Source: a virus
IMG/VR virus record: IMGVR_UViG_3300027806_000001
Coordinates: 64,001 to 128,000 of that record
Strand: one strand, 5' to 3'
Length of the DNA: 64,000 nucleotides
The notes under the pieces are model-generated. The model ran no database searches and had not been told where the DNA came from. It saw only the letters and a list, made by a program, of their open reading frames with translations. Shown here piece after piece: positions 3,169-60,421 of this stretch. Positions within the stretch are counted from its first letter, which is position 1; every line of letters begins with the position of its first letter. The position numbers and the translations under genes are program-made.

Positions 3169-3675
3169 TCAGTATGGCCGCGTCCCCGCGGGGTTGTCCA
3201 GGAGCTGCTCGACGCTCGTCAGGACCGTCTCCATCGCCGTCAGCCAGCCGTGTCCCTCCAGTATCCACCCCGCCCTGTTGAAGAGGGAGGTGCGGCACTC
3301 CGTCCCAAGCCTGCGGATCACCGGCCTGCACCGGTGCTTCAGGTCCGCCTGCGCCGAGTGCTGGCTGATCATGGACAGCCTGTCCAGGGCGGCCAAGGCC
3401 GCGGTCCTCGTCTCCGGCGTGACGCGGGGGGAGGCATGCAGCTTCTCCGCCCGCTCCCTCAGGTCCCGGATCCTGCACGTCGTCCAGTCCATCCTGGTCC
3501 TGGCGACCTTTCTCAGCCCCCGCAACAGCTGCGTCGCCTCCCATACGTCCTCCGGGATGGTCACATGCTCCGTCTGCGTCCCCCGCTCTGGCGACCAGTC
3601 GGTCACCGCCATCGTCGTAAACTCCGGGTCCATGCATGGTTCCTGCCTTTTTCGTTCAAGGTTCAAAGCCTTCAT
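3169..3675 (-). CDS. Hypothetical protein
   Basis: Distal part of long ORF from ATG 3675, which overlaps upstream stop (TGATG). Confidence 0.4.
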   Translation of the reverse strand: MKALNLERKRQEPCMDPEFTTMAVTDWSPERGTQTEHVTIPEDVWEATQLLRGLRKVARTRMDWTTCRIRDLRERAEKLHASPRVTPETRTAALAALDRLSMISQHSAQADLKHRCRPVIRRLGTECRTSLFNRAGWILEGHGWLTAMETVLTSVEQLLDNPAGTRPY

Positions 3676-4298
3676 CACTCCTCCAGGCCCTCGATGATGC
3701 GGTCCAGGAGGGACTCCTTCGAGTAGCCCGAGCGGTTCCTGCCCCAGCGGCGCCGGACGTGGTAGCTGTCCGGAGGGGCCGTCATCCTCTGCCCCATGCG
3801 CTGCGGCGGCAGGAACGTCCTCAGGGCGAAGCCGAGGCCCAGCCTTCGCATGAAGATGCCTGCCGGCACCAGCAGCTCGGGCTGGCCTCCCCGGCCGCGC
3901 CGCGGCGTCAGCCAGTGCGCAGGCAGCAGGGACGCCCAGAGCTCCTCCTCGTTCATCGTGGCCAGGTCCCTGCGGCGCAGGTCCCTCGCGTCCAGCCGGC
4001 ACGCCTCGCACACCGGCGGATCCTCGAACACCAGGTTCCAGCGGCCGCACCTGGCGTTCACCAGCTGCGGTTTGGCAGGAGGGCGCACGGTGGCCGTGCA
4101 GCGGCGCCAGCCCGGCACGGGGTGCAGCTCCCCGGCCGTGGCGAAGAAGCACGGCTCCCGAAGCCTGCGCCCGTCGCGCCGGCAGTCGGCCAGCGCCCTG
4201 ACGTAGGCGTGCAGCGGATCGGGGTCGGCGCAGAACTCTTCCTTCAGCAGCCGGTCGAACGAGCAGACGCGGTTCTCGATCATCTTCATCCAGCTCAT
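3675..4298 (-). CDS. Hypothetical protein
   Basis: 207-aa ORF with RBS (aggaagcaaggc) and coupled stop. Confidence 0.5.
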   Translation of the reverse strand: MSWMKMIENRVCSFDRLLKEEFCADPDPLHAYVRALADCRRDGRRLREPCFFATAGELHPVPGWRRCTATVRPPAKPQLVNARCGRWNLVFEDPPVCEACRLDARDLRRRDLATMNEEELWASLLPAHWLTPRRGRGGQPELLVPAGIFMRRLGLGFALRTFLPPQRMGQRMTAPPDSYHVRRRWGRNRSGYSKESLLDRIIEGLEE

Positions 4299-4476
4299 GC
4301 CTTGCTTCCTTTCTGCCTGGGCGCCTCGGGGTCGAGGTCAGGCACCTCCCTCGGGGACGGCCGTCGAAGCTCACTCTGACTCATGCCCCAGGCGCCCAAG
4401 GGCACCAGTACGGCCTGCACGTACAGCCGGTCTTTTTCGTCGAGGAACTCGACGTGCTCGATCATGACCAAGCGGG

Positions 4477-24951: not shown

Positions 24952-24980
24952 ATTCTAACCTGCGAGGTGGGGTTGTTTAG
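24952..24980 (-). promoter_or_regulatory. CTAAAC-N17-TAGAAT promoter for tRNA locus
   Basis: 17-nt spacer. Confidence 0.7.
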
Positions 24981-25687
24981 CCCTTCTTCTTGTTCTTCTT
25001 TTTGCCCTTGGACTGCGCCCTGGCCAGCTCGGCCGCCTGCACCTTGTCATAGGCGCGGGTTCCGTAGTAGCCCAGCGGAAGTCCGGCGGCGATCAACCCT
25101 CCGGCGATGTCTCCGCCCACGGCGGCAAAGGGCTTGAAGCCGTATTCGCTGGCCTCCTCGGGATCGATCCGACCCTTCATGGCCTCGATGGCCTTGGCCC
25201 GGCCGAGGTCGTGGGATCCGCCCAAAAAGAACAAAGACGAACTGGGCTCGAAGGCCTGCGGCTTCTTGGATCGAGCCTTGTCGAACTTCGCGGCGATGTC
25301 GTGCATCTTGTTGCGACGGATGGCCGACGCGATGAGATGGCCCAGGAACGCGCCGGCGACGCCTCCCCCGATCGCTCCCAGGCCCTGGACGTCGGGATCG
25401 CCGCTTGCCAGGTTGCCTATGCCATAGCCGGCCCCTGCGCCGAGGGCTATTCCCGGCAAGGTCATCAGGGCTCCGCTGGTCAGCGGGTTCTTGACGAAGA
25501 AGCCTGGATCCTCGCCGATGGCCTCGGCCATGGCGGTGGCCCGGCCTGGCCTGGACTCGAAGGCCGTGTTCCAGCCGGCAGGCCCCCAGTAGTCGCTGAA
25601 CAGACCTCCGCCCGAATCCATGTCGAGCAGTTCCTTGGCCTTGAGGGCCTGCTTGTAGCCAGGGAGATGGTGGAAGTAGTATGACAT
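24977..25687 (-). CDS. Putative virion internal protein (YxHH...KxA, Gly zipper)
   Basis: MSYYFHHLPGYKQA; GIALGAGAGYGIG and GGGVAGAFLG segments. Confidence 0.6.
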   Translation of the reverse strand: MSYYFHHLPGYKQALKAKELLDMDSGGGLFSDYWGPAGWNTAFESRPGRATAMAEAIGEDPGFFVKNPLTSGALMTLPGIALGAGAGYGIGNLASGDPDVQGLGAIGGGVAGAFLGHLIASAIRRNKMHDIAAKFDKARSKKPQAFEPSSSLFFLGGSHDLGRAKAIEAMKGRIDPEEASEYGFKPFAAVGGDIAGGLIAAGLPLGYYGTRAYDKVQAAELARAQSKGKKKNKKKG

Positions 25688-25690
25688 GGT

Positions 25691-26182
25691 TTAGCCCTTG
25701 ACCTGAGCCTTGCTCTTCTGCTTCTTCTTACCTATCGAGTCGATGAGCTTGTCCGCGAGGAGGTAGCCGCCGAGGCCGCCTGCGCCTGCACCGAGGAGAC
25801 CTCCTCCGCCCAGCCCAAGGAGGGCGGAGCCGCCGGCGCCTGCCGCTTCGTCCATGTTGTGCCTCATCATGGCATCGGCTTCTTCGGCGGACCGAGCCTG
25901 CGTGGGGTCGACGCCGTCGAATCCATGGGCCTTGACTCCGGTGTACGCGCCAAGGCTTGCGCCCGTCAGGCCGCCCAGGATCATGCCCAGGTCCGCGCCC
26001 ATGCCCTTGCCTGCGCCGCGGAGGATCTCCCTGAAGATCGGCTCGTCGTCGTCCGCCGCGGCTCCGTGGATGAGCGCGCTGACGGTGGTGCCGATGAGGG
26101 CCTGCTTGCTGCGGGTCTGCTCGCCGTAGAGGCGCTCGAGGTTGGCTGCGATCTTGATCATGGGTGTTCCGGGATAGGTCAC
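25691..26182 (-). CDS. Putative virion protein, Gly zipper
   Basis: KIAA, KQA; GLGGGGLLGAGAGGLGGYL. Confidence 0.6.
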   Translation of the reverse strand: MTYPGTPMIKIAANLERLYGEQTRSKQALIGTTVSALIHGAAADDDEPIFREILRGAGKGMGADLGMILGGLTGASLGAYTGVKAHGFDGVDPTQARSAEEADAMMRHNMDEAAGAGGSALLGLGGGGLLGAGAGGLGGYLLADKLIDSIGKKKQKSKAQVKG

Positions 26183-26628
26183 CGCTGGAGCGGCATGTTT
26201 TGAATTCCTCGGGCATCGGCGAGCGACTGAGCGCCCGGCCGGAGGTTGGCTCCAAGGAGCTCAGCCTCGACCAGGCCCCTAGCCGCCTGATTCATCTCGG
26301 GAGTGTTGGGGTTGCGAGGATCATTCATGAGGGTGTCCACCAGGCCGAGCAGCGCCTGGCGCTTCCTGTCGGCTCCGGTCATCTGGCCGTAGGCTGCGCC
26401 GAGGCCGGCGCCCGCCAGGCCTCCGATGCCTCCGCCGACCATGGCGTCGTTGAGCCTGTAGTCGGTTCCGACGATGCCGGTCGCCTGTCGTCCCAGAGGA
26501 AGCAGCGCTGAATTCATGGAGTTGATTTCGTTTGCGGCAGCCTGATTAGCGGCCCGCCCGGCCTGGGCGATCTGATCCTGGATGCCTGCGCGCTTGGTGC
26601 GGGGAAGGGGGTGGGAGTAGTAGGCCAT
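26179..26628 (-). CDS. Putative virion protein (YxH...KxA, Gly zipper)
   Basis: MAYYSHPLPRTKRA; GGGIGGLAGAGLGAAYG. Confidence 0.6.
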   Translation of the reverse strand: MAYYSHPLPRTKRAGIQDQIAQAGRAANQAAANEINSMNSALLPLGRQATGIVGTDYRLNDAMVGGGIGGLAGAGLGAAYGQMTGADRKRQALLGLVDTLMNDPRNPNTPEMNQAARGLVEAELLGANLRPGAQSLADARGIQNMPLQR

Positions 26629-27272: not shown

Positions 27273-27782
27273 TCACCTCTTCAACTGGCCGTACAACTCG
27301 AACGGATCGACCACGCCGCGCATCGGATTTCGCTCGCTGTTCCACCGGTTGTAGGCATCGACGGCCATGGTCGGCCCCTGGCGCCGCGCGATGGAGGAGG
27401 CGCTGTCCGAGATGCTCTGGCCCAGGTGGCCGGCCTGAGCAGACTGCTTCCCAAGGCCTGACAGCGAGTGGCCGTAGGGCTGGTTGCTCAGGTAGAAGGG
27501 GGCCTGGGAGACAGGCGGAGGAACGGCTGCGGCAGGCAGGTCGGCCGGCGCAGGAGGTCCCACGAAGTCAGGATGGCCGTAGGAGATCACAGGACTGGCG
27601 GCCGGATGACGCAGGGAGTCGCGGGCTGGATTGTACGCGACCGGCTTGTTGAACTTGGTGAGGTTCTTCGCGGCCATGAACGGAGAGCTTCTGGTGGTCC
27701 GGCTGACCGCCTCGAGGAATTTGGCCACGCCGTCGGCCGGGCCTGCCGAGGACTTCACATGGTGGGAGTAGGGTCGGGTCAT
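27273..27782 (-). CDS. Putative virion protein (YxHH...KxxA)
   Basis: MTRPYSHHVKSSA; coupled to RNAP stop. Confidence 0.55.
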   Translation of the reverse strand: MTRPYSHHVKSSAGPADGVAKFLEAVSRTTRSSPFMAAKNLTKFNKPVAYNPARDSLRHPAASPVISYGHPDFVGPPAPADLPAAAVPPPVSQAPFYLSNQPYGHSLSGLGKQSAQAGHLGQSISDSASSIARRQGPTMAVDAYNRWNSERNPMRGVVDPFELYGQLKR

Positions 27783-30700
27783 TCCAGGATCCTGACCGTG
27801 TCGGTCGCCGACACCTCGCCGCGGTTGAACGCCTTGATGGCGTCCTCGCGGGTGCGGAAGGTCTTGGCCACGTTCTTGTCGGCCTTCTGCCGGCTGGCCA
27901 GGTACAGGCCGTAGAGGAACTCGTTCTTGATGAAGGGCTGCGCCTGGAAGGTCGCCGCCGAGAGCAGGTTGCGGCTAGGCAGCATCTTGCGGTAGGCCTC
28001 GTCGACCGCGGCCTGGGTGCTGGGCACGTGCAGGCGCATCTGGTCGCCGTCGAAGTCCGCGTTGAAGCCGACGACGACCGACGGGCTCAGCCTAAGGGTC
28101 GGCCCCGCGGTGAGCACCGGCCTGGCCGCCATGAAGTTGTACTTGTGCAGCACGGGCGCGCGGGTGATCATCACCGGGCGCCGCTGCATCTCGGCCAGCA
28201 GGGCGCGGTTGGCGGTGGGCGTCCTGGACTCCACCTGCTTCATGGCCTCGAGGGGCGACGCCCCGCTGGCCACCAGGGCGCGCACCACGTACGGCCTGAA
28301 GACCGAGTAGGCCATGTCCTCGGGCACGCCCACGTGGTCCATGTCCAGGGACGGATCCGGGGTGATGACCGCGTTGCCGACGCCCTCGACGGTCGAGGAC
28401 AGCACCTTGCGCTGGAACATCGAGAACTTGGGGTTGCTGCCCAGGATGTGCCGGATCAGGCCGTTGACGTTCTTCTGGCGCAGCTTGGCGCTGGCGGGAT
28501 CCGCCAGGCCGACCGTGGCCTTGACCATGTTGTACAGCGCCAGGCGCTCCTTGCCGGACGCCTCCTGGCCGAGCTCGCCCTGCAGGTCCTTCAGGTTGCG
28601 GTTCATGCCGAAGAGCTCCTTGTACAGGTAGTTCATGTCGGCGACCATCTGCATGTTGCCCGTGTCGGTGATGGGCCGGAACCGCGGCGGCAGCACCGGC
28701 ATGTCCTCCCAGAGGAAGTCCGACGGCTTGAGGTTCCGCTTCGTCATGCCCTCGAGGTACGAGAGCCTCGAGATGGCGTTGCTGCGGCGCTGGCCCCTGG
28801 CGGTGGCGATCTCCTTGCGGGCCATCTCGGCCTCGGCCTTGAGGTCCATGCCGCCGAGGCGCTGCTCCAGGCCCGCCATGCCGTCCACGCCCTTGACCTT
28901 CTCGCCTGAGATGACCCGCTCGAGGTCCTTCTTGGTGAAGCCCATGAGCGACCTGACGGCGTCCTCCATGACGGGGTTGACCACCTTGGCCGCCAGGGGG
29001 AAGTGGCCGAACTTCGACTGGTTGGTGCCGAAGATCTTGTCGTCGAAGAAGCCGCCGTCGTAGGCCTTGCCGGTGCGGAAGTCGATGTCCCGCGGATCCT
29101 GGATCTCGCCGCCCGAGAGCTTCTTGACGTCGGAGCCGGTCATGCCATAGATGTTCACGGCGCCGCCCTGGCGCTCGACGTTGACGCCGGCGCCCTTCAG
29201 CTGGGAGACGAACTTGTCCCAGACGAACGGCACGTTGACCGCGGGGACGGGGGTGCCCATCTTGACCGCGCGCCAGTACTCGTCGTTCTTCTGGCCCCGG
29301 ACCAGGCGGGCGTCCTTGATGACGTCGATCGCGCCGTGGGCCAGCAGGGCGTTGATGTCGCTGATGGAGATGCGCTTGGCGCCCTCCTCGCCGCCCTTCA
29401 CGGGGGCCTCCTCGGTGCTGTAGCCTCCGAGGTCGCGGGCCGTGAGCTTCTTCTCCGCCTGGTGGTGCAGGTTCATGAAGTAGCGGTTGCCGGTGAAGAT
29501 GCCCTCGATGTTCCGGCCGAGCCTGGGATCGAACAGCGTCTCGGTGTCGGTCAGGCCGTTCTTCTTCAGCTCGCGCTGGGCCATGTCGATGTAGGACTCG
29601 TCGACGAAGGCCGGCAGCTTGTAGGGCACCCCGGTCTTCACCGCGATCTTGCCCAGGGCGGCCTCGACGGCCTGCACCGGGTTGACGCGGCTGGTGAGCG
29701 CCAGCGGGTTGAAGGCGATCTCGTAGGGGTTGCCGTCCTTGTCCTGCGGCATGTCCTTGTCGTCGACCACGGCCGAGACGACGCCCTTGTCGCCGTACCT
29801 GCCGACGAGCTTGTCGCCGACGCCCATGGGCTTGTAGCTCTTGATGGCCACCTGCCAGCCGCTGCGGGTGCGGGTGACGTCGGTGACGACGCCGGGCTGG
29901 CTGTGGTCCCAGGTCTGCGCCCGGTTGCTGTACGCCGGGCGGGTGCGCTTGACCAGGCCGAAGGTGTCGCCCTGGCGCTCGCCGACGCCCAGGATGACCG
30001 GGTCGCCGGGATTGACCATGGTGCCGACCTTGACGACGCCGGACCCGGCGTCGATGGCCTTGAGCTGCTCCTGGGAGTAGACGCCTGGGAACAGCGAGAC
30101 GAACCGGGAGTAGTCGGCCGAGTAGTCGTCCTTGGAGTCGTAGCCGATGGTGTACATGTGCTCCGAGGACATCTTCTCGGCCGCGGTCTTGGACATCACC
30201 ACGCCGTCCTCGAAGTTGGCGCCGCCGAGCTCCGGGTCGCCCCACACCGTGTAGGCCACGCGCAGGTTCTTGCCCATGGCGAGCCGGCCCTTGTCGTCGG
30301 TGTAGTTCGACTTGGCCAGGAGCTGCCCCGGCTGCACCTGGTCGCCCACCTTGACCATCGCCGTGTTGTGCAGGAACGTGTTGTGAATGACCAGGCCGCA
30401 GTTCACGGCGAAGACGTGGCTGTTGGCCACGGTGAAGTCGTAGACCCGCTCCTCGGCAGGCGCCTCGACGACCTCCTCGACGATGTCCCACATGACGTCG
30501 GACTTCGCCCAGGCCTCGAACGGACCCCTGGCGTTTTGGCGCGACACCTTTCCTGCGGATGCGTCCTTGTAGGCGCGCATCGGAACATCGTGCTCAAACC
30601 CGGCATAGACCAGCTGCCTGCTCTTGGCCGGCAGCGGTATGAACTCGAACACGGAGGTTCGGTAGGAAGAAGACCTCAACGACGAAAGTTTGAGGTTGCG

Positions 30701-33700
30701 GTCGGAATAGAGGAACCACTTGTCCAGCTTGGCCAGATGCGTCGAGATGACCCTGAGGCCGTAGGCATCCGCCCAATTCGGATTAGTGGAACTGAGCTGC
30801 CTGTCGGAAAGAACCGTGGAGAACACCCCGAGGCCGGACAGAAGATCGATGAGAGCGTCACGCATGGCGCGGGAAGTGGTCCATGCTTCCAATTGAACCG
30901 CGCCATTCGAGTCCTCGTGCAGGCATCCGTCGCCTGCGAAATAGCCTGCGACAAGGCCATGCCTGAACGCTTCGGAGCGGTCGAAGGCTCTTTCGGACGG
31001 ACACTTGTGAGCGCTGCCGTGGCCAAATTCAGCCACCAGCCACGACGCCACTTCGGAGGAGGTAAAGCTGACCTTGCCGGCGTCCGCCTTGTTGTCGTGA
31101 GGCTTCAAGCCCAGTTGAACAATCAGTTGCTCGAGTTCAGCCCTGCGAGAAGCATCCTTCACCGCGAGGATGACCATGTTCGGCTGCGAAGGCGGAACAT
31201 GGCCCTCGGCCAGGTAGATGCCGGCCAGAAGACCCCATTCGTGGGAATCGCGTTTATCGACGGAGTCCTTCGGATTGTCCATTGCGCATACCGGCAGTCG
31301 AGTCGTGCCGACCACGCACTCGTCCGGGTACAGGGGCACCAGCTTTCCGTCCTCTCCCATGGTGACCAGGGAGTGGTCCTCGGTGACGACCACGGTCCTG
31401 CCACCGCGGGTGCGCACCTGGACCATCCTGCGGTCGTTGGTCAGCTCGACGAAGGCCGTCACGGGCTCCCACGAGGACCTGCAGGTCTCCGGATCGATCG
31501 AGCGGATGAGGTCTCCTGCCGCGAAGGCGTACTGGTCCGCGCGCACGTGCATCCTGCGGTCACCCCGCAGAATCCACACCTTGGTGGACCCCTTGACGCA
31601 CTTCCTGTTGAACGGGAAGTTGTTGTAGGTCTCGTACCTGCGCTTCGTCTTGCCGTGCTTCACCTCGACGAAGTCCGGGTCGACCGCGGTGACGACGCCG
31701 GGGCCCAGCTCCTTCTCCGCCGTCACGGCCGCCAGGGCCGACTGCAGCTGCTCCTCGTAGGCGCGGCCCTCGGGATCCTCGGAGTCGAGGCCCTGCACCA
31801 GGGGCGACTCGGCGTCCCGCACCGGCAGGGCCTGGGTGAAGTACTTGCTGCCCATCAGCAGGCGGCCGCCCTTGATGCCCGACACGCCGGGCACGAGGTT
31901 CGAGTTCACGTTGAACATCGCGTTGTGCGACGGCAGCTCGAACTGCACCGCCTTGGGGTCGACGTAGGAGATCTCGCCGCCGACCATGGCGCGGACCATG
32001 TCGCCGGTCTTGGCGGCCTTGGCCAGTTCGCCCGGGAAGGCCACGATGGAGTCGGTCACCTGGCGCGCGGGCACGGGCTTGACCTCGCCGGTCCTCGGGT
32101 CGCGCAACCTGGAGTAGAGCTGGCCGTCGGTGCCCTTGATGGCGCCCACGGTGAGGCGGAGGTCGACGCCGACGCTGGAGCTCTCGGGCGTTCGAACGGG
32201 ATCGATGAACCCGAAGTGCGACGGCTGCACCGACCGGCTGTCGATGGGAATGCCGTGGGCGCCCGAGGAGATGCCGCCCTCGCCGGTGCGGATGACGCGC
32301 ATGTTCTGGTCGAGGATCTCCATGGGGTTCACCTCCTCGATCGGAGCGCCAAGGCCGGAGCCCATGAGCACGCCGTTGAGGGCCGGGGTGAACACGCCGT
32401 TCTTCAGCGGCTCGAGGTTGCCGCGGTTGGTCGCCTTGAACAGGGCCGTCCGCAGGATGCCGCCGGCGTCCTTCTCGATGCGCTCCGAGAAGAAGTCCTC
32501 CGGGCCGAGGAACTTCTGGTAGGCCAGGCTGTCGCGGTCGTCCTGGTCCTCGAGGCCCTTCTGAGCGTTGAGGATCTTCTGGCTGGCCCTCAGCAGGGTG
32601 CGGCCCGAGATCTTGCCGAAGTCGTCGTCCGTGAGATCGACCGGGGTCATCGGCCCGATCTCCACCGGGGCGGCCTCCTTGGTCTCCATCAGGGTGTTGA
32701 GGTCGGCCGCGGCCTTGACCCCGACCGACAGGCGGAATCCGCCGCGCGGCTTGGGGTCGAGCAGCAGGCTGCGACGGAGCTGCTCCAGCTCGGGGCACTC
32801 GATCTCGACGCAGTACTCGCCGCTCATCGGCGGCAGCACCTTGACCAGGTCGTAGGTGAAGCGGCGGCCGGAGCCGCAGGTCGCCTCGAAGTCCTTGCGG
32901 AAGACCTTGCGCAGCTTCTTGATCTCGTCCGCCTCGATGACGGTCAGCCTGCCGTCGCCCTTGGCGATGCCGGGAGCCTTGTCCGAGTCCCTGAGGGCGT
33001 AGTACACGCCGTCGATCAGGCCGGATGGAACCGTGATGTAGCCCTCGGAGTCGATGCGCAGGGTGCCGCGGATGGGCACGGAGGCGGCCTTGGCGCGGTA
33101 GCCCAGCGTGCGCCGCGTCACCTCGGGGTCGAGCACCGTGGACTCGAGGGCGGTGCGGATGCCGGAGTAGATCGTGTTCTCGTCGAGGTCCTTGGACGGC
33201 TCGTTGGTCAGGCGCTCGTAGATGCGCCCTGCGTCGTAGGCCGAGCCTTCCTTGCTGGACGCCAGCAGGTCCTTGCCCCACGTCTTTTCAAGTTCATCAT
33301 CGGTGACGCCCAGGGCGCGGAACATGGGGTAGGCCGGGGCGACGGACTGGCCGATCTCCACGACGAACTTGCCGGTGTCCGGCATGAGGGCCATGCGGAA
33401 GCCGCGGCCCTTGCCCGGCAGGGTGTTGAAGTGAGCCTCGTACTCGCCCGACTTCCTGCGGCGGACGAACGGGCCCGGCAGGAGGCGGGACTGGTTGGTC
33501 ACCACGTACTCGCTGCCGTTGGAGATGAAGGTGCCGCGCGGGGTGAGGTACGGCACGCGGGCCAGGGTGACCGGCTTGTCGGTCTGATCGATGACCGCCC
33601 CGGTGGCGTTGTCCTTCATGACCAGGTGCCCGCGCAGCGGGGTGTACAGGCTCTGGCCCTGCATGAGGGCCTTCTGCTGGTCCTTCAGGGTGTACTCGGG

Positions 33701-33883
33701 GGCGCCGGCGTAGTCGACGTCGGCGGCCTCGACCGTGTACCGGGAGTTGGACAGGGGGAACCTTGCGGCGACGGCCTTCCGGACGCCGTCCAGGATGTTC
33801 CGGCGGATCGTGGAGTAGTCGTCGAAGCGCCGCATCTCGGGCTGGGCGGGGGCCAGCAACGAGTTCAGGTCCTGGGGAGGCAT
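27779..33883 (-). CDS. rpoBC: Single-chain DNA-directed RNA polymerase: beta fused to N-terminal half of beta', with intein
   Basis: beta: HFGFIDPVRTPES, NFEDG, GDKLVGRYGDKGVVS, NPLALTSR; beta': GHFPL, PVLPPRFRP, RAPVLHK, FNADFDGDQM. Confidence 0.93.
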   Translation of the reverse strand: MPPQDLNSLLAPAQPEMRRFDDYSTIRRNILDGVRKAVAARFPLSNSRYTVEAADVDYAGAPEYTLKDQQKALMQGQSLYTPLRGHLVMKDNATGAVIDQTDKPVTLARVPYLTPRGTFISNGSEYVVTNQSRLLPGPFVRRRKSGEYEAHFNTLPGKGRGFRMALMPDTGKFVVEIGQSVAPAYPMFRALGVTDDELEKTWGKDLLASSKEGSAYDAGRIYERLTNEPSKDLDENTIYSGIRTALESTVLDPEVTRRTLGYRAKAASVPIRGTLRIDSEGYITVPSGLIDGVYYALRDSDKAPGIAKGDGRLTVIEADEIKKLRKVFRKDFEATCGSGRRFTYDLVKVLPPMSGEYCVEIECPELEQLRRSLLLDPKPRGGFRLSVGVKAAADLNTLMETKEAAPVEIGPMTPVDLTDDDFGKISGRTLLRASQKILNAQKGLEDQDDRDSLAYQKFLGPEDFFSERIEKDAGGILRTALFKATNRGNLEPLKNGVFTPALNGVLMGSGLGAPIEEVNPMEILDQNMRVIRTGEGGISSGAHGIPIDSRSVQPSHFGFIDPVRTPESSSVGVDLRLTVGAIKGTDGQLYSRLRDPRTGEVKPVPARQVTDSIVAFPGELAKAAKTGDMVRAMVGGEISYVDPKAVQFELPSHNAMFNVNSNLVPGVSGIKGGRLLMGSKYFTQALPVRDAESPLVQGLDSEDPEGRAYEEQLQSALAAVTAEKELGPGVVTAVDPDFVEVKHGKTKRRYETYNNFPFNRKCVKGSTKVWILRGDRRMHVRADQYAFAAGDLIRSIDPETCRSSWEPVTAFVELTNDRRMVQVRTRGGRTVVVTEDHSLVTMGEDGKLVPLYPDECVVGTTRLPVCAMDNPKDSVDKRDSHEWGLLAGIYLAEGHVPPSQPNMVILAVKDASRRAELEQLIVQLGLKPHDNKADAGKVSFTSSEVASWLVAEFGHGSAHKCPSERAFDRSEAFRHGLVAGYFAGDGCLHEDSNGAVQLEAWTTSRAMRDALIDLLSGLGVFSTVLSDRQLSSTNPNWADAYGLRVISTHLAKLDKWFLYSDRNLKLSSLRSSSYRTSVFEFIPLPAKSRQLVYAGFEHDVPMRAYKDASAGKVSRQNARGPFEAWAKSDVMWDIVEEVVEAPAEERVYDFTVANSHVFAVNCGLVIHNTFLHNTAMVKVGDQVQPGQLLAKSNYTDDKGRLAMGKNLRVAYTVWGDPELGGANFEDGVVMSKTAAEKMSSEHMYTIGYDSKDDYSADYSRFVSLFPGVYSQEQLKAIDAGSGVVKVGTMVNPGDPVILGVGERQGDTFGLVKRTRPAYSNRAQTWDHSQPGVVTDVTRTRSGWQVAIKSYKPMGVGDKLVGRYGDKGVVSAVVDDKDMPQDKDGNPYEIAFNPLALTSRVNPVQAVEAALGKIAVKTGVPYKLPAFVDESYIDMAQRELKKNGLTDTETLFDPRLGRNIEGIFTGNRYFMNLHHQAEKKLTARDLGGYSTEEAPVKGGEEGAKRISISDINALLAHGAIDVIKDARLVRGQKNDEYWRAVKMGTPVPAVNVPFVWDKFVSQLKGAGVNVERQGGAVNIYGMTGSDVKKLSGGEIQDPRDIDFRTGKAYDGGFFDDKIFGTNQSKFGHFPLAAKVVNPVMEDAVRSLMGFTKKDLERVISGEKVKGVDGMAGLEQRLGGMDLKAEAEMARKEIATARGQRRSNAISRLSYLEGMTKRNLKPSDFLWEDMPVLPPRFRPITDTGNMQMVADMNYLYKELFGMNRNLKDLQGELGQEASGKERLALYNMVKATVGLADPASAKLRQKNVNGLIRHILGSNPKFSMFQRKVLSSTVEGVGNAVITPDPSLDMDHVGVPEDMAYSVFRPYVVRALVASGASPLEAMKQVESRTPTANRALLAEMQRRPVMITRAPVLHKYNFMAARPVLTAGPTLRLSPSVVVGFNADFDGDQMRLHVPSTQAAVDEAYRKMLPSRNLLSAATFQAQPFIKNEFLYGLYLASRQKADKNVAKTFRTREDAIKAFNRGEVSATDTVRILE
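30380..31600 (-). mobile_element. Intein (407 aa) with LAGLIDADG homing endonuclease
   Basis: NRK|CVKGST ... FAVNCGLVIHN|T; block B VTEDHSL; LAGIYLAEG and VAGYFAGDG. Confidence 0.92.
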
Positions 33884-33889
33884 TCCCGG

Positions 33890-33898
33890 ATTATAGCA
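33890..33898 (-). promoter_or_regulatory. Extended -10 (TGcTATAAT), leaderless RNAP transcript
   Basis: TATAAT is 6 nt before the ATG; no RBS. Confidence 0.6.
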
Positions 33899-33912: not shown

Positions 33913-34956
33913 TCAGAGCTTGAACTTGACGTTGCCGTCCTGCTCCTCGAGGTCGATGCCGGAGTGCAGCACCTCCTCGCCGGTCTGGCGCCGAAGCAGC
34001 GCGTTGAGCTCCTTGAGCTTGCGCCGCTCCGGGTCCTCCTTCATGCTCTCGTTCATGAGCTTCCAGCCGACCAGGCCTCCGATGCCCACGGGCAGGCCCA
34101 TGAGCAGGTAGCTGAGGTTGCCGGGGAAGTTCGTCAGGCCGTGGGCTTCCACAGGCGGCCTTTCCTTGATGACCGCGACGCTCGGATCCAGGCCAGGCAC
34201 CGCGCGAACGCCGTCCTCGGCCTGCTTGACCGAATCGGCCAGCTCGTCGAGCGCCGAGGAGATCTTCGAGGTGGGCTCGTTCAGCGCCGCCTCGAACTCG
34301 CGCTTGGCCTTCTTCAGCTCGTCGTCGATGCGCTGCTTGCGCCGCATGTCCACCAGGCGCGTGCCCAGGATGTACGTCGCGACGCCGGGGGCGATGGCCG
34401 CGATGGGCCACGCCGCTCCTGCCAGGACCGGCCCCGTGAGCCATCGGTCGATGGCGCCGTCCTCGGACTGCTTGAGGGAGGATTCGTTCCCCATGTCCTC
34501 CATCTCCTCGCCGGAGAGGCCGGACTGCTCGGACTTCCCCTCGGGCAGCATCTTGTCGGCCTCGGGAGGCTGCTCCTCGACCGACTTGCGGCTGCGTGGG
34601 ATCTGCACGCGCTTGCGGTACTTGTTCTTCCTGATCTCGTCCAGCTCGCTCAGGTCGCGCAGCTCCTTGGCCCCGCCGTAGCCGGCCGAGAGGGCCAGGC
34701 CGCCCAGGGCGCTGGTGCCGGCCAGGGCGGCCAGCACGGCGGCATCCGCCGAGCTGAGGCCCAGGGCGGACTTCTTCTCGGGCAGGCCCTTCCGCGGCGT
34801 GGAGGCGAAGTCGGTCACGTCCTTGCCGGACATGCTCGAGGCGGCCTCGCGGGCCTTGGACGATCCGGTGGCCTTGCCCTCCTGGATCGCCTTGACGAGG
34901 CCGAAGAACCGCTGCTGCTTCTTGCTGGTGGATGGCATCGCGCTGCTCCTGGTCAA
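33913..34956 (-). CDS. Putative virion protein
   Basis: N-terminal PSTSKKQQRFFG...DFAST..KGLP basic module seen in phage head proteins; several hydrophobic Gly/Ala segments. Confidence 0.6.
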   Translation of the reverse strand: MTRSSAMPSTSKKQQRFFGLVKAIQEGKATGSSKAREAASSMSGKDVTDFASTPRKGLPEKKSALGLSSADAAVLAALAGTSALGGLALSAGYGGAKELRDLSELDEIRKNKYRKRVQIPRSRKSVEEQPPEADKMLPEGKSEQSGLSGEEMEDMGNESSLKQSEDGAIDRWLTGPVLAGAAWPIAAIAPGVATYILGTRLVDMRRKQRIDDELKKAKREFEAALNEPTSKISSALDELADSVKQAEDGVRAVPGLDPSVAVIKERPPVEAHGLTNFPGNLSYLLMGLPVGIGGLVGWKLMNESMKEDPERRKLKELNALLRRQTGEEVLHSGIDLEEQDGNVKFKL

Positions 34957-35525
34957 CCGCCTGAATTGTTGTTCTCGAACGGACGCCAGTCCCAGTCAAC
35001 CGGACGGTTGCCTTGCTCGTAGTACGGCTTGGGAGCCTCTCCGCCGAACATGGAGTCCCACGCCGTGCGGTTGATGGCCGCATCGGCCACGGCGCCCTGG
35101 TGGACCAGCTGCTCGACCGTTCCCTTGTGCTCGGGACTCTTGCTGAGCGTCTGTGCGGCGGTGCCGTACTGCTCGGGATTGTCGAAGTACTGCGCCTCGT
35201 CTGCAAGGCGCGAGTTGACGAAGTAGCGGCCGCCGAGGCCAAGACCAAGGCCGGCCAGGGCTCCGATGCCTCCAAGGCCCGACTCGCCGCGGCGACGGCC
35301 GCGCAGGCGGTCCAGGATGGAGCCGACGCCGTAGCCCAGCAGGGCGCCGCCGGCGCCGTAGAGCAGGTTGTTGCCCAGGCCGCTGTCGGCTCCGAACGGA
35401 TTGACGAATCCGTGCAGGTCCCTGGCGTTCCACTGGCCAGGCGCAGCCGCAGCGTAGTAGGGCGTGTCCGCCTGCTTGCTCTCGGTTTCGGCCCGCTTCT
35501 GCATGTGGTGGGAGTAGTAGGCCAT
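34953..35525 (-). CDS. Putative virion protein (YxHH...KxA, Gly zipper)
   Basis: MAYYSHHMQKRA; GAGGALLGYGVG, GGIGALAGLGLGLGG. Confidence 0.6.
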   Translation of the reverse strand: MAYYSHHMQKRAETESKQADTPYYAAAAPGQWNARDLHGFVNPFGADSGLGNNLLYGAGGALLGYGVGSILDRLRGRRRGESGLGGIGALAGLGLGLGGRYFVNSRLADEAQYFDNPEQYGTAAQTLSKSPEHKGTVEQLVHQGAVADAAINRTAWDSMFGGEAPKPYYEQGNRPVDWDWRPFENNNSGG

Positions 35526-37861: not shown

Positions 37862-39769
37862 TCAGTTGGTCCTCGTGGCGTAGTTCCCGTAGGGGGACCG
37901 GCCCTGGTCAGGTGGTCCAAGGACGGCCTGCAGCAGGGCGGGATCGTTCAGCAGCATCGTCATCGTGGCCGGATCGACCGCCTGGCTCAGCCTTCTGGAG
38001 GCATCGACGGTAGGCGCAGGGGACTGCAGAGCTTCCTCCCGGCTCCTGTACCAGTTGGCCAGGGTCTGGTAGGCCTGGGGATCGGAAGCGGCCAGCTCGC
38101 CAAGTTCCGCCTGGGTGCGGGAGTTCTCCGGAATCGCTCCGTAGATCGAGTCCCTGAGTTCCGGACTGACCCTCTGCAGCACATCCATGACGGCCTGCGG
38201 CGACTGGCCCAGGCCCACCAGCCTCTGGGTCAGTTCGGAGCCCAGGCCCTGCCGGTTCAAGGCTGCCTGCTCGCGGTCGAACTCGGCCCTGGCCTTGCGC
38301 TGGGAGTAGGTCTCGAGCCCCTTGAACGGAGCCGAGGCCTCCATGGCGCCGGTGGCCAGGCGGACAAATGCGTTGTCCGGAATGTCCTGCTCGAGCTGAG
38401 AGCGGATCACGTCGAGTTCCTTGGTGTCGGGATAGCTGACGTTGCCGTACTGATCCACGGGAACCCCCTGTTCGGTCGCGGATCGCAGCACATTCTCCCG
38501 GAGAGGGGCTTTGGAGAGAAGGGAGGCGGGAATGGTAAAGGCCTGCGCGGTGTTCGGGAGGCCGGTCATGCGCTGGGCCGGACCCACGGCGAGCTCCCTT
38601 GCGACTTCGCCAAAGGACGCGTTCGGATTGTCGCCCAGCAGCTCGCCTGCCGAGGAGAGGCCTGCCTCCGCACCCTGGGCGAAGTTGCCCAACCCCCAGC
38701 CGCGGCCCAGGGATCCTAAGGCGAACTGCGTCAGTTGACCCGGCACCGTCGCCGTCGCCCCGGAGCCGGAGAGGACTGCCGGAGCCATCCTGGAGCCGGA
38801 GATGGACCAGAGGGGATTGAGCGCGCTGCCGAAGGCGTTGAAGACTCCCTTGGCCCCTTGTTCACCGAACCCTGCAACCGTGCGCAAGGCGCCGGGGGAG
38901 AGCTTGGAGGAGAACTGAGGCAAGGCGAACGCCCCCTCGTACAAAGCCTTGGGGACGACCCTGCCTGCGGAGCTGACCGCCTGGCCTGCCCGGGCGACGA
39001 CCGGAGCCACCTTGGCCGGCACCGCGGACATGATTTTGCCTCCGGCGGCGGTGACGAGGTTGCCTGCCCGGGATGCCAAAGAGGGCAGCACCGCCTTGGT
39101 TGCTCCGGCTCTGCCGGCGTTGGCGACAAGGGCGGCGTTTCCCTGCCCGCCGGTGGCTGCCGCGGTCAGGGCGTGGGCTCCTGTAGCAAGTGAGGTGCCT
39201 GCCCAGTTCTGCAAGGAATTACGCGCGAGCACGGGATCCCGCTCCATGGCGTCGTACATCAGGAAGGAGTTGACGCCCGCCTTGCCTGCGTCGGGCAGGT
39301 ATTTGGTGTAGTAGGCGCCCTGATCCTCCAGGCCTTCCTGGACGGCCTGCTGGTTGTCTGTCATGTAGTTGTAGGCGATGCCTGGCCAGCTCATGTTCCA
39401 CGCCGCGCTGGCGTACGGCTGCACGGTGTCCCGCCAGAACTCCCTTGGCCTCGCGTTCCTGACGTAGGCCGGAGGCAGCAGGTCCTCCTCGGTCATCCTG
39501 CGGCCCATGATCGGAACGACCGCCGGCACGGCCTGACGACCAGGCTGATCGTAGATGCCGCCGGCGGCCCGGGAGCTGGACGCGGCGCCGGGCCGCGGCT
39601 CAGGCAGGGACGCCCCCACCGGTTCCGGTTGCCGAGTCCTTGCGTTCGACTGGACGCGGCCTGCCGGCGACATCATGCCCATCAGGTTCTGGTTCTGGAT
39701 GCTCTCCAGGGAGTTGCCGGGACCTGGGCCCTGCGCTGACTTGACGTGATGGTCGTATGGCTTGGGCAT
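37862..39769 (-). CDS. Large Ala/Gly-rich putative virion (ejection) protein
   Basis: MPKPYDHHVKSA; 635 aa. Confidence 0.6.
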   Translation of the reverse strand: MPKPYDHHVKSAQGPGPGNSLESIQNQNLMGMMSPAGRVQSNARTRQPEPVGASLPEPRPGAASSSRAAGGIYDQPGRQAVPAVVPIMGRRMTEEDLLPPAYVRNARPREFWRDTVQPYASAAWNMSWPGIAYNYMTDNQQAVQEGLEDQGAYYTKYLPDAGKAGVNSFLMYDAMERDPVLARNSLQNWAGTSLATGAHALTAAATGGQGNAALVANAGRAGATKAVLPSLASRAGNLVTAAGGKIMSAVPAKVAPVVARAGQAVSSAGRVVPKALYEGAFALPQFSSKLSPGALRTVAGFGEQGAKGVFNAFGSALNPLWSISGSRMAPAVLSGSGATATVPGQLTQFALGSLGRGWGLGNFAQGAEAGLSSAGELLGDNPNASFGEVARELAVGPAQRMTGLPNTAQAFTIPASLLSKAPLRENVLRSATEQGVPVDQYGNVSYPDTKELDVIRSQLEQDIPDNAFVRLATGAMEASAPFKGLETYSQRKARAEFDREQAALNRQGLGSELTQRLVGLGQSPQAVMDVLQRVSPELRDSIYGAIPENSRTQAELGELAASDPQAYQTLANWYRSREEALQSPAPTVDASRRLSQAVDPATMTMLLNDPALLQAVLGPPDQGRSPYGNYATRTN

Positions 39770-58528: not shown

Positions 58529-60421
58529 TCACTGCGGAGGCGGCACCGGCTGCCTCAGCTGGTCGCGGCCCTGGCCTTCGGCCTGGGCTGTGGCCTGGTC
58601 GAGCATGCTCTTGACGACGGCGTGCATGTTCGGATCCTGGCTCTTGATCTGGTCGAGTATCTGCCTGCGCTGCGGGCTGCCCAGCGGCGCCGTGGCCATG
58701 ATCTCCTGGACCCGGGCGTTGGCGTCCGCGAAGAAGCTGTCGATGTCCCTGGACGGTCCCGCCGCGGTGGGGCCCGCGACGCCGTTCTGAGGCATGGACT
58801 GGGGCGCCGCGGCCGGAGGAGCCCCAGGGCCGCCCATCATGAGGTTCGGCCCGCCGGGCACGCCCTCGCCCGCCATGGCCTGGCCGGGGGCGGCTATGAA
58901 GGCTCCCGGAGGAGCGCCGAGCACCTGCTCGTTCTCCTGGGCCTTCTGCATGCGGTCCATGTAGGCCTTCTCCGCCTTCATCTTGAACTCCTGCTCGGCC
59001 TGGCGCTTCTTGTAGGTGTCCTTCCAGTCCAGGTTGAACAGGTTGAGGACGTCCTGCTCCGCGGCCACGCCCTGCATCATCATCTGGAGCATGATCATGC
59101 GGCGCTCCATGTCGTCGGCGTGCGTCGGGCGGACCAGCCGGGCCTCGCAAGGCAGCCAGCTGAGGATGGCCGAGACGCGGTCGACGATCCAGGAGAGGAC
59201 GTCCTGGATGCCGTGCAGGAAGATGGACTCGCCGGCCTCGAACAGGCGGGCGGCGAAGGGCGCCGTCTGGGCGCTGAGGTTCTTGCGGTAGAGCTCCACC
59301 GGAATGCCGAGGCCGTTCAGGAAGTCCGCCTGGGCGTTCTGGAGCAGCTCGGGGGTGACGAAGTTCTTGCCCTCGCCGCCGAGCAGCTGGTAGTTGACCG
59401 GGGTGGGCAGCCACTGCCAGCCGGTGGGGTCCTTGCGGGCGCGCTCGATCGAGCGGGTCACCTGCTGGCCGAAGCTGCCGATGTTGACGCCCTTCATGAC
59501 GTCGCCGCCCGCACCGACGGACTGGGGGCTGATGAGCCTGATGGGCAGCATGTGGTCGAGGGCGATGCACTCGTTGTTGCGCTTCAGGATCTGCGCCAGG
59601 TAGGCGTCGCGGAAGCCTGCGATGACCGGGGGCAGGCCCCAGGGGCCCAGCTTGATGTCGCTGAGGTTGCCCAGGCTGGTGTGGTGGACCATGCCGGGGC
59701 TGAACTTGAACATCCTGCCCTGGCGGACCGACTGCACGATGCCCCACGGCACCGACTCCAGGTAGGCGCGGTCGGACTTGGAGATGGAGCCGATCTCGGC
59801 CGTGGGTACCTCGTAGTAGTACTCGGGCTGGCCGCCGTAGTCGTGGGCCACGATGCGCATCTGCTTGACGTGCCACCGCTTGAGGTGGACGCGGTTCTCC
59901 TCCCTGGTGGGCATGTCGCTGGGATCCAGGACCTTGACCTCCTGGCCGCACTGGCAGCGGAACCTGAAGCCGTGCTTGAGCTCGAACCTGTAGTCGACCT
60001 GCTCGATAGGGGCCGCAAAGCCGCACTCGGGGCACTGCAGCATGCGCTTGAACGGCGCCAGGACGGAGATGAAGCTGTTGCCGTAGACCTTGACGTCCCT
60101 GCCGATGGAGAACAGGGCCGACTTGAGGGACATCTTCTCGAGCAGGAATTTCTTGTATTCCTGCTGCTTGTCCTCGTCGAGGGAGTCGTTGGCACCGCCG
60201 ATCTCGATGTCGGTGCCGACGAAGTAGGACACGACGTACTCGATGGCCTGGGCGAAGGTCCGGTTGCTGTAGTACATCAGCTCGGCGATCTCGAACGCCT
60301 CGTTGAGGTTGGTCGGCAGGTAGAGGGACGCGTAGTCCAGGAACGGGCTCGGAGCATGCTCGGAGTGCTCCAGCATGCGCTTGCCGCCGCCTCCGGAAGG
60401 GTTCATGGATCCCATCGTCAT
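58529..60421 (-). CDS. Probable portal protein with Zn-ribbon insert
   Basis: PSPFLD, IG.D..VYGNSF, WGLPP...FRD..L..IL....E.IA...LPIRLI; CPEC...CQC insert; low-complexity C-terminal tail. Confidence 0.62.
   Translation of the reverse strand: MTMGSMNPSGGGGKRMLEHSEHAPSPFLDYASLYLPTNLNEAFEIAELMYYSNRTFAQAIEYVVSYFVGTDIEIGGANDSLDEDKQQEYKKFLLEKMSLKSALFSIGRDVKVYGNSFISVLAPFKRMLQCPECGFAAPIEQVDYRFELKHGFRFRCQCGQEVKVLDPSDMPTREENRVHLKRWHVKQMRIVAHDYGGQPEYYYEVPTAEIGSISKSDRAYLESVPWGIVQSVRQGRMFKFSPGMVHHTSLGNLSDIKLGPWGLPPVIAGFRDAYLAQILKRNNECIALDHMLPIRLISPQSVGAGGDVMKGVNIGSFGQQVTRSIERARKDPTGWQWLPTPVNYQLLGGEGKNFVTPELLQNAQADFLNGLGIPVELYRKNLSAQTAPFAARLFEAGESIFLHGIQDVLSWIVDRVSAILSWLPCEARLVRPTHADDMERRMIMLQMMMQGVAAEQDVLNLFNLDWKDTYKKRQAEQEFKMKAEKAYMDRMQKAQENEQVLGAPPGAFIAAPGQAMAGEGVPGGPNLMMGGPGAPPAAAPQSMPQNGVAGPTAAGPSRDIDSFFADANARVQEIMATAPLGSPQRRQILDQIKSQDPNMHAVVKSMLDQATAQAEGQGRDQLRQPVPPPQ

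Follow-up and report, generated by a model that had tools for sequence, protein, structure and literature searches.

An intein-bearing fused beta/beta-prime chain of a phage RNA polymerase and its separate partner gene

What kind of RNA polymerase (RNAP) is made by a phage gene that holds both catalytic barrels in a single chain and ends before the bridge helix and the trigger loop? The gene occupies positions 27779-33883, on the minus strand, of the stretch of DNA analysed here, which we call the window: 64,000 nucleotides (nt), bases 64001-128000 of virus record IMGVR_UViG_3300027806_000001. An earlier note on this stretch had described the product as a single-chain enzyme of beta and the N-terminal part of beta-prime, and had expected the rest of beta-prime to be encoded elsewhere. 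We are confident in the following explanation taken as a whole: the gene encodes the larger of the two chains of a bacterial-type RNAP that the phage itself specifies. It would be translated as a precursor of 2034 amino acids (aa), from which an intein would excise itself, leaving an invariant beta motif intact in a mature chain of 1627 aa. That chain would comprise a complete beta and the equivalent of E. coli beta-prime 30-554, with the clamp helices and the NADFDGD barrel, while bridge helix, trigger loop, jaw and cleft would be supplied by a separate 619-aa chain docked through completion of a hairpin. The covalent tether between beta and beta-prime plausibly replaces the alpha-dimer assembly platform, promoters would probably be recognised by a divergent phage protein of the sigma-70 family, and homology with Salmonella phage Arash suggests that the enzyme is loaded into the virion and may be injected for early, host-independent transcription. 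The feature is real and conserved, and it is probably functional.

The fused gene and its distant partner

The fused gene is one uninterrupted open reading frame (ORF) of 2034 codons. Its parts are given here in window coordinates, followed by the partner gene in coordinates of the whole genome:

27779..33883, minus strand: whole ORF, 2034 aa and a TGA stop, the precursor beta(N-extein)-intein-beta(C-extein)::beta-prime N-half
31601..33883, minus strand: beta N-extein, residues 1-761
30380..31600, minus strand: intein, residues 762-1168 (407 aa)
29174..30379, minus strand: C-extein part of beta, residues 1169-1570, which holds the beta double-psi barrel with GDKLVGRYGDKG
29129..29173, minus strand: beta to beta-prime junction, about 15 aa, RQGGAVNIYGMTGSD
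27782..29128, minus strand: beta-prime N-half, residues 1586-2034
28043..28063, minus strand: NADFDGD catalytic Mg-binding motif, residues 1941-1947
genome 53372-55231, minus strand, outside the window: beta-prime C-half, a 619-aa ORF with its own ATG

Pfam places beta domains (Rpb2_3 at residues 516-579 and Rpb2_6 at 1167-1490, E 9e-43) and beta-prime domains (Rpb1_1 at 1691-1769 and Rpb1_2 at 1900-1965, E 6e-23) in the same 2034-aa chain; the Rpb2_6 and Rpb1_2 matches within one ORF agree with the earlier note, which had seen both barrels in one polypeptide. The conserved lysines of the beta barrel (GDK...GxxGxKG) are present, GDKLVGRYGDKG at residues 1356-1367 being aligned with E. coli beta 1063-1074. 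From NADFDGD the chain continues for 87 aa to its C-terminal end (...TVRILE), close to the 85 or so that had been estimated, and neither Rpb1_4 nor Rpb1_5, the Pfam domains of the bridge helix and trigger loop, was matched anywhere in it, so that the absence of these elements also stands. The reading of the ORF as a single-chain beta::beta-prime N-half is confirmed.

The virus record, which is rated complete, is 183,468 base pairs long with direct terminal repeats. Rpb1_5 (PF04998) is matched in a single place in this whole genome (E 1.4e-20). That place is the 619-aa ORF, 36.5 kb from the fused gene (E 6e-21 for the protein itself), and the separate beta-prime C gene that had been predicted to lie outside the window is thereby located. 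The partner protein starts MEPKLTTVGQ, and its alignment with beta-prime runs from TTVGR (E. coli 570) onward; it covers E. coli 570-939, including the bridge-helix and trigger-loop segments that correspond to GARKGLADTALKTA and GEPGTQLTMRTFHIGG. The genome holds one RNAP set: the fused chain and PF04998 are each matched once.

By alignment, beta is complete in the fused chain. The full-length NCBIfam rpoB model spans the intein-less allele described below from end to end (residues 28-1163 against model positions 37-1093 of 1096), and the mature chain aligns with residues 48-220, 498-893 and 1063-1338 of the 1342 in E. coli beta, N-extein residues 33-198 corresponding to 48-220 and residues 498-761 to 498-762. 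The lineage-specific insertions of E. coli are missing from this beta. The junction of about 15 residues, RQGGAVNIYGMTGSD, stands where beta would have its last 4 residues and beta-prime its first 29; the join is effectively linker-free, with beta-prime homology starting at about E. coli residue 30, and in an AlphaFold2 (AF2) model of the C-extein the junction forms a beta-hairpin.

The beta-prime N-half corresponds to E. coli beta-prime from about 30 to about 554, with clamp helices and barrel retained, and the alignment of the fused chain with the NCBIfam rpoC model stops at position 533 of 1147. The Zn-binding segment (E. coli beta-prime 64-96) is deleted, and there is not one Cys in either beta-prime piece. 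The N-half terminates at about E. coli E554 (VRILE, where E. coli has VRITE) and the partner starts at about K567-K570. What the split has removed is only the tip of a hairpin (E. coli beta-prime 555-566), one strand being kept on each chain, and with the strands so distributed the two beta-prime pieces probably dock by strand complementation, completing the surface beta-hairpin. The AF2 model of the C-extein has a predicted local distance difference test score (pLDDT) of 73, and its top Foldseek match in the PDB is cyanobacterial gamma (9dvs_D, E 3.8e-27); since poor domain orientations keep the global template modelling (TM) scores low (0.3), the model is usable for fold assignment alone. 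No solved fused beta/beta-prime chain was among the Foldseek matches of this model.

A search of residues 1300-2034 against 5.8 billion protein clusters yielded 1045 matches at E <= 1e-20, and the homologue counts given here refer to the best 120 of these, which are 43-98% identical and lie on contigs of up to 225 kb. Every one of the 120 spans the beta/beta-prime junction, and every one ends 84-99 aa past DFDGD in the conserved tail D-x-V-x-I; a single apparent exception carries an insertion of about 350 aa and has the same C-terminal tail.

Cultured phages have the layout as well. Arash gp206 (1525 aa; OQ632216.1) matches residues 8-2032 of the fused chain with 32% identity apart from the intein, which the Arash gene lacks, and has the same C-terminal end, while Arash gp216 (606 aa) matches the beta-prime C-half with 100% coverage and 26% identity. 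The same gene pair occurs in the Vibrio phages D69, D181 and D148. Genomes of the Arash type, at about 180 kb, are similar in size to the present one of 183 kb; the spacing of the two RNAP genes differs, being 4.8 kb in Arash, 1 kb in D69 as in the other two Vibrio phages, and 36.5 kb here. The Arash genes have been annotated simply as beta and beta-prime, with fusion and split not described (PMC10585845). The layout is thus already present, unremarked, in deposited cultured phages, and of the earlier claim of a distinct phage RNAP architecture we keep the distinctness but not any uniqueness, the architecture being shared by these phages and by metagenomic protein clusters that number at least 120.

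An intein in the beta part

The earlier note did not mention the intein in beta. It is 407 aa long (residues 762-1168) and matches Pfam PF14890 (E 1.2e-10) and the LAGLIDADG endonuclease family PF14528 (E 4e-9). Its splice residues are Cys762 at the first position, TEDH in block B (834-837), VIHN at the end (1165-1168) and Thr1169 as the +1 residue, and two LAGLIDADG motifs retain their acidic residues (LAGIYLAEG at 886-894 and LVAGYFAGDG at 977-986). Four metagenomic alleles (P0002-P0005), 95-98% identical, are each 1627 aa long, that is 2034 minus 407, and read ...FNRK/TFLHN across the site (the slash marks the point of insertion); because these alleles are precisely intein-less, the boundaries of the intein are exact to the residue. 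The insertion site, NRK/T, shows little or no variation among 33 aligned family members and lies between residues aligned with N762 and T763 of E. coli beta. Similarity to the PI-PkoII and DnaB inteins is weak and falls within the expected blocks. We infer a canonical class-1 intein with a LAGLIDADG homing endonuclease, for which splicing is predicted.

The fused RNAP gene is an unusually rich intein target, and the family of fused chains is an intein hot spot. Insertions of 300-410 aa occur at no fewer than 7 distinct sites (761/762, 567/568, about 540-547, 992/993, 953, about 680 and about 1612, in P0002 numbering), several of which recur in unrelated family members, and some proteins have two or three insertions. 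The insertion-bearing members are P0024, P0038, P0047, P0049, P0056, P0057, P0072-P0074, P0079, P0099, P0100, P0105, P0112 and P0118. Two further members, P0037 (1981 aa) and P0044 (2103 aa), have GNAT acetyltransferase Pfam domains inside the fused chain and, in the insertion map, are longer by about 100 aa at the N-terminus. In phages D181 and D148 the region of the fused gene (OZ196140.1 144146-149573) is 0.9 kb longer than in D69 and is annotated as four hypothetical proteins and a homing endonuclease; a mobile element, either an intron or a free-standing endonuclease gene, seems to interrupt the fused gene there.

Packaging, other subunits and alternative readings

In purified virions of Arash, gp206 gave the most spectra (3516), above the major capsid protein, and gp216 (1210 spectra) and the sigma factor gp10 were also detected (PMC10585845). 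By homology, the present enzyme is probably plentiful in virions, from which it may be injected to carry out early transcription independently of the host. Several points weigh against packaging. The case for it is drawn from the proteomics of a single homologue, that of Arash, which is 32% identical, and the same virion preparation contained ribonucleotide reductases, primase and helicases (PMC10585845), which makes carry-over possible. The earlier note had argued for packaging from the position of the gene among K-x-A proteins, an argument that we do not retain: K-x-A is not enriched in the fused chain (11 observed against 10.4 expected) and is near expectation in 12 neighbouring ORFs too, and on these counts it was rejected as evidence of packaging. 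The RNAP chain also lacks an N-terminal leader that its neighbours share (see below). Finally, a sigma-70-like extended -10 precedes the fused gene, which fits transcription by the host polymerase:

33890..33898, minus strand: TGCTATAAT, extended -10-like motif 6 nt upstream of the fused-gene ATG, a putative promoter element

An enzyme of the same architecture could go unpackaged, being made by host RNAP after infection and having a role confined to middle or late transcription, as do the non-virion RNAPs of phiKZ-like phages. The placement of TGCTATAAT, the lack of both K-x-A enrichment and the shared leader in the RNAP chain, the many replication enzymes in the Arash virion proteome, with their hint of carry-over (PMC10585845), and the presence of a single RNAP set instead of a virion/non-virion pair all favour this alternative. 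We nonetheless consider it somewhat unlikely, given that Arash gp206 has the top spectral count, higher than that of the major capsid protein, and is accompanied by gp216 and sigma (PMC10585845).

The motif TGCTATAAT has 4 copies in this 183-kb genome of 66% G+C, all on the minus strand, where by our estimate about 0.16 would be expected by chance; the other copies are at genome positions 117674, 39223 and 27076 (minus strand). As a promoter it would imply a nearly leaderless RNAP mRNA. At its other end the fused gene has a stop codon that overlaps the ATG of the next gene (ATGA). Ten flanking ORFs received no structural annotation from PHROGs or Pfam, the only assignments being a DUF3008-like N-terminus and a glycine zipper. 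Otherwise unrelated flanking ORFs have in common an N-terminal leader, MxYY(S/F)H(H/P)...K(R/Q)A or M..PY(S/D)HHVKS(A/S), which is found at window 24980-25687, 26182-26628, 27276-27782, 34956-35525 and 37865-39769 (all minus strand). A homologue of the Arash portal protein gp204 is encoded at window 58991-60421, minus strand (tblastn E 7e-55); this portal gene is about 25 kb upstream of the fused gene on the same strand, and in Arash it is two genes upstream of the RNAP gene.

Neither alpha nor omega was found in the complete 183-kb genome with PF01000, PF01193 and PF01192, models that each matched 14 of 14 control genomes. This absence, together with the alignment of beta with cellular beta over its full length, lends something to a reading that competes with a self-sufficient phage enzyme, in which the phage chains are a catalytic core that recruits the host alpha dimer, and perhaps omega, as a phage-host hybrid. 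Such a hybrid is unlikely in our judgement: the RNAPs of phiKZ and AR9 function without alpha (PMC7598289), the covalent tether of beta to beta-prime greatly lessens the need for an assembly platform, and sequence identity to the cellular subunits is only 25-27%.

For the two-chain phage enzyme that we prefer, a sigma factor was looked for in the rest of the genome along with the beta-prime C-half. Both searches had been proposed in the earlier note; the C-half was found, while for sigma there is a weak candidate only:

genome 13358-14107, minus strand: sigma candidate, a 250-aa ORF, Sigma70_r3 at 25.9 bits, just above the Pfam cut-off

The candidate matches TIGR02937 with E 2.8e-7. Against it, its matches to sigma-70 superfamily models (E 1e-6 to 1e-8) are below the NCBIfam cut-offs, and it has no tblastn match in deposited phages, Arash included. 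Nor is there detectable BLAST similarity between it and the Arash sigma factor gp10, and orthology of the two is not supported in view of the missing tblastn match. It is probable, judging from the family-level matches, that the phage encodes a sigma factor. A second sigma-like match, at window 3636-4379, was rejected for want of Pfam or NCBIfam support. In the rifampicin pocket the substitutions, in E. coli numbering, are Q513A, D516E, H526Q and S531I, at positions that we take to be rifampicin-resistance sites in E. coli (Q513, D516, H526 and S531); these pocket residues suggest an enzyme insensitive to rifampicin.

The two remaining alternatives concern the break in beta-prime. It is highly improbable that a split intein rejoins the two halves by protein trans-splicing into one full-length beta/beta-prime chain. 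The gene family is indeed an intein hot spot, but the end of the N-half (VRILE, followed by the stop) and the start of the C-half (MEPKLTTVGQ) are directly homologous to beta-prime, there is no space at the break for split-intein halves of about 100 aa and 35 aa, which excludes trans-splicing at the sequence level, and the virion proteomics of Arash identified gp206 and gp216 separately (PMC10585845). The earlier note had named as its refuting case a full-length beta/beta-prime fusion truncated by a frameshift or an assembly error, and this, like truncation by a sequencing error, we reject as practically inconceivable, having found nothing in its favour: independent assemblies have the same end and D-x-V-x-I tail in all of the best 120 homologues, the gene downstream has no beta-prime similarity by PHROGs or Pfam, the missing half exists 36.5 kb away as an intact gene that starts with an ATG of its own, and the same pair of genes is found in three cultured phage lineages.

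Comparison with known polymerase architectures

A full-text literature search found no account of a chain in which beta is fused to the beta-prime N-half while the C-half is separate, although one may already have been published. An alpha-like assembly platform is usually counted among the requirements of a multisubunit RNAP, and the known phage exceptions, phiKZ and AR9, are too divergent for easy comparison with cellular enzymes. Members of the present family remain alignable with E. coli RNAP position by position, although they have lost alpha, omega and the beta-prime Zn domain, have beta fused to one half of beta-prime and have beta-prime broken at a novel place; the family is a natural experiment that offers a minimal parts list for a sigma-type RNAP, and its cultured members, Arash (Salmonella) and D69 (Vibrio), make direct testing feasible. 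The broadest claim, which we put forward tentatively as a serious possibility and would not yet back in all its parts, is that this would be a third kind of phage multisubunit RNAP: a core of two polypeptides with a tether instead of an alpha dimer, a C-half docked by a hairpin and a phage relative of sigma-70, loaded into the capsid and injected for early transcription that neither depends on the host nor is sensitive to rifampicin, its beta-prime having been split among phages in an event separate from that in cyanobacteria and afterwards fused to, or parted from, beta.

Among cellular enzymes, the full-length fusions of Helicobacter and Wolbachia (NF007172, NF011417) likewise join the C-terminus of beta directly to the N-terminus of beta-prime. 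NF007172 is the best-scoring model for the fused chain (E 1.8e-91, at 307 bits against a cut-off of 5372); the chain stops at position 1940 of its 2890, and the partner resumes at 1948. Unlike the phage chain, the Helicobacter and Wolbachia fusions contain beta-prime in full (the models have 2839-2890 positions), and these bacteria retain alpha and omega, which the phage does not have. The beta-prime of cyanobacteria and plastids (gamma or RpoC1, and RpoC2) is broken after the catalytic barrel, as in the phage, and by sequence too the best match of solved structure is a cyanobacterial gamma (8syi_D, E 1.8e-50). The tail past NADFDGD is 152 aa in cyanobacterial gamma and 87 aa in the phage; the phage split is about 63 residues nearer the catalytic motif, and position 4 of the rpoC2_cyan model corresponds to residue 25 of the phage C-half. 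Cyanobacterial beta is unfused, unlike that of the phage.

Enzymes of the phiKZ/AR9 type resemble the present one in being phage-encoded two-barrel RNAPs with no alpha or omega and with beta-prime split after the barrel, and one form of the enzyme is packaged in the virion (PMC7598289). They differ in that their beta is split into 2-3 pieces with nothing fused, where the present beta is intact and fused, and in having two paralogous sets and no sigma, where the present phage has one set and a sigma-like gene (PMC7598289). Their sequences are far more divergent from cellular RNAP. The mReC phages (Weinheimer and Aylward 2020; PMC7481178), which are tailed and have genomes of 100-300 kb, have an RNAP that can be aligned with the cellular one, as here; mReC contigs, however, have a separate beta (1011-1377 aa) adjacent to an unsplit beta-prime (903-1005 aa) (PMC7481178 supplementary data 2), and we rejected them as the same family on account of this difference in architecture. 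In that paper the words 'fused' and 'fusion' are used only of crAssphage RNAP, not of mReC, and 'split' is not used (PMC7481178).

The nearest unsplit relatives are mReC-type phage beta-primes of 966-994 aa (locus L011), with E 1e-51 to 1e-59. The search that gave these unsplit forms, restricted to shorter proteins, also gave stand-alone N-halves of 575-595 aa with the same tail of 87-92 aa. One locus (L009:4915-19651) has a beta of 1684 aa, a gap of 31 nt, a separate beta-prime N-half of 584 aa and, 3 kb beyond the N-half, a 1621-aa protein with a beta-prime C-half domain; this beta and the protein containing the C-half are much larger than their counterparts in the present phage. In another (L010) a stand-alone N-half is encoded apart from any beta.

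A quick IQ-TREE phylogeny of the N-half region only (a limited sample of 47 sequences, short search, midpoint rooted) grouped all phage forms (support 100), made the unsplit phage forms the sister group of every split form (99), and nested cyanobacterial gamma within bacteria. With gamma among bacteria and the split phage forms beside unsplit phage beta-prime, the tree suggests that the phage split is independent of the cyanobacterial one. At least 2 changes between fused and unfused states are required, and the phage split may be older than, or at any rate separable from, the fusion, an order of events that we offer tentatively. The unsplit, three-gene and fused layouts together provide a dated series of architectures in which subunit fusion and fission can be followed.

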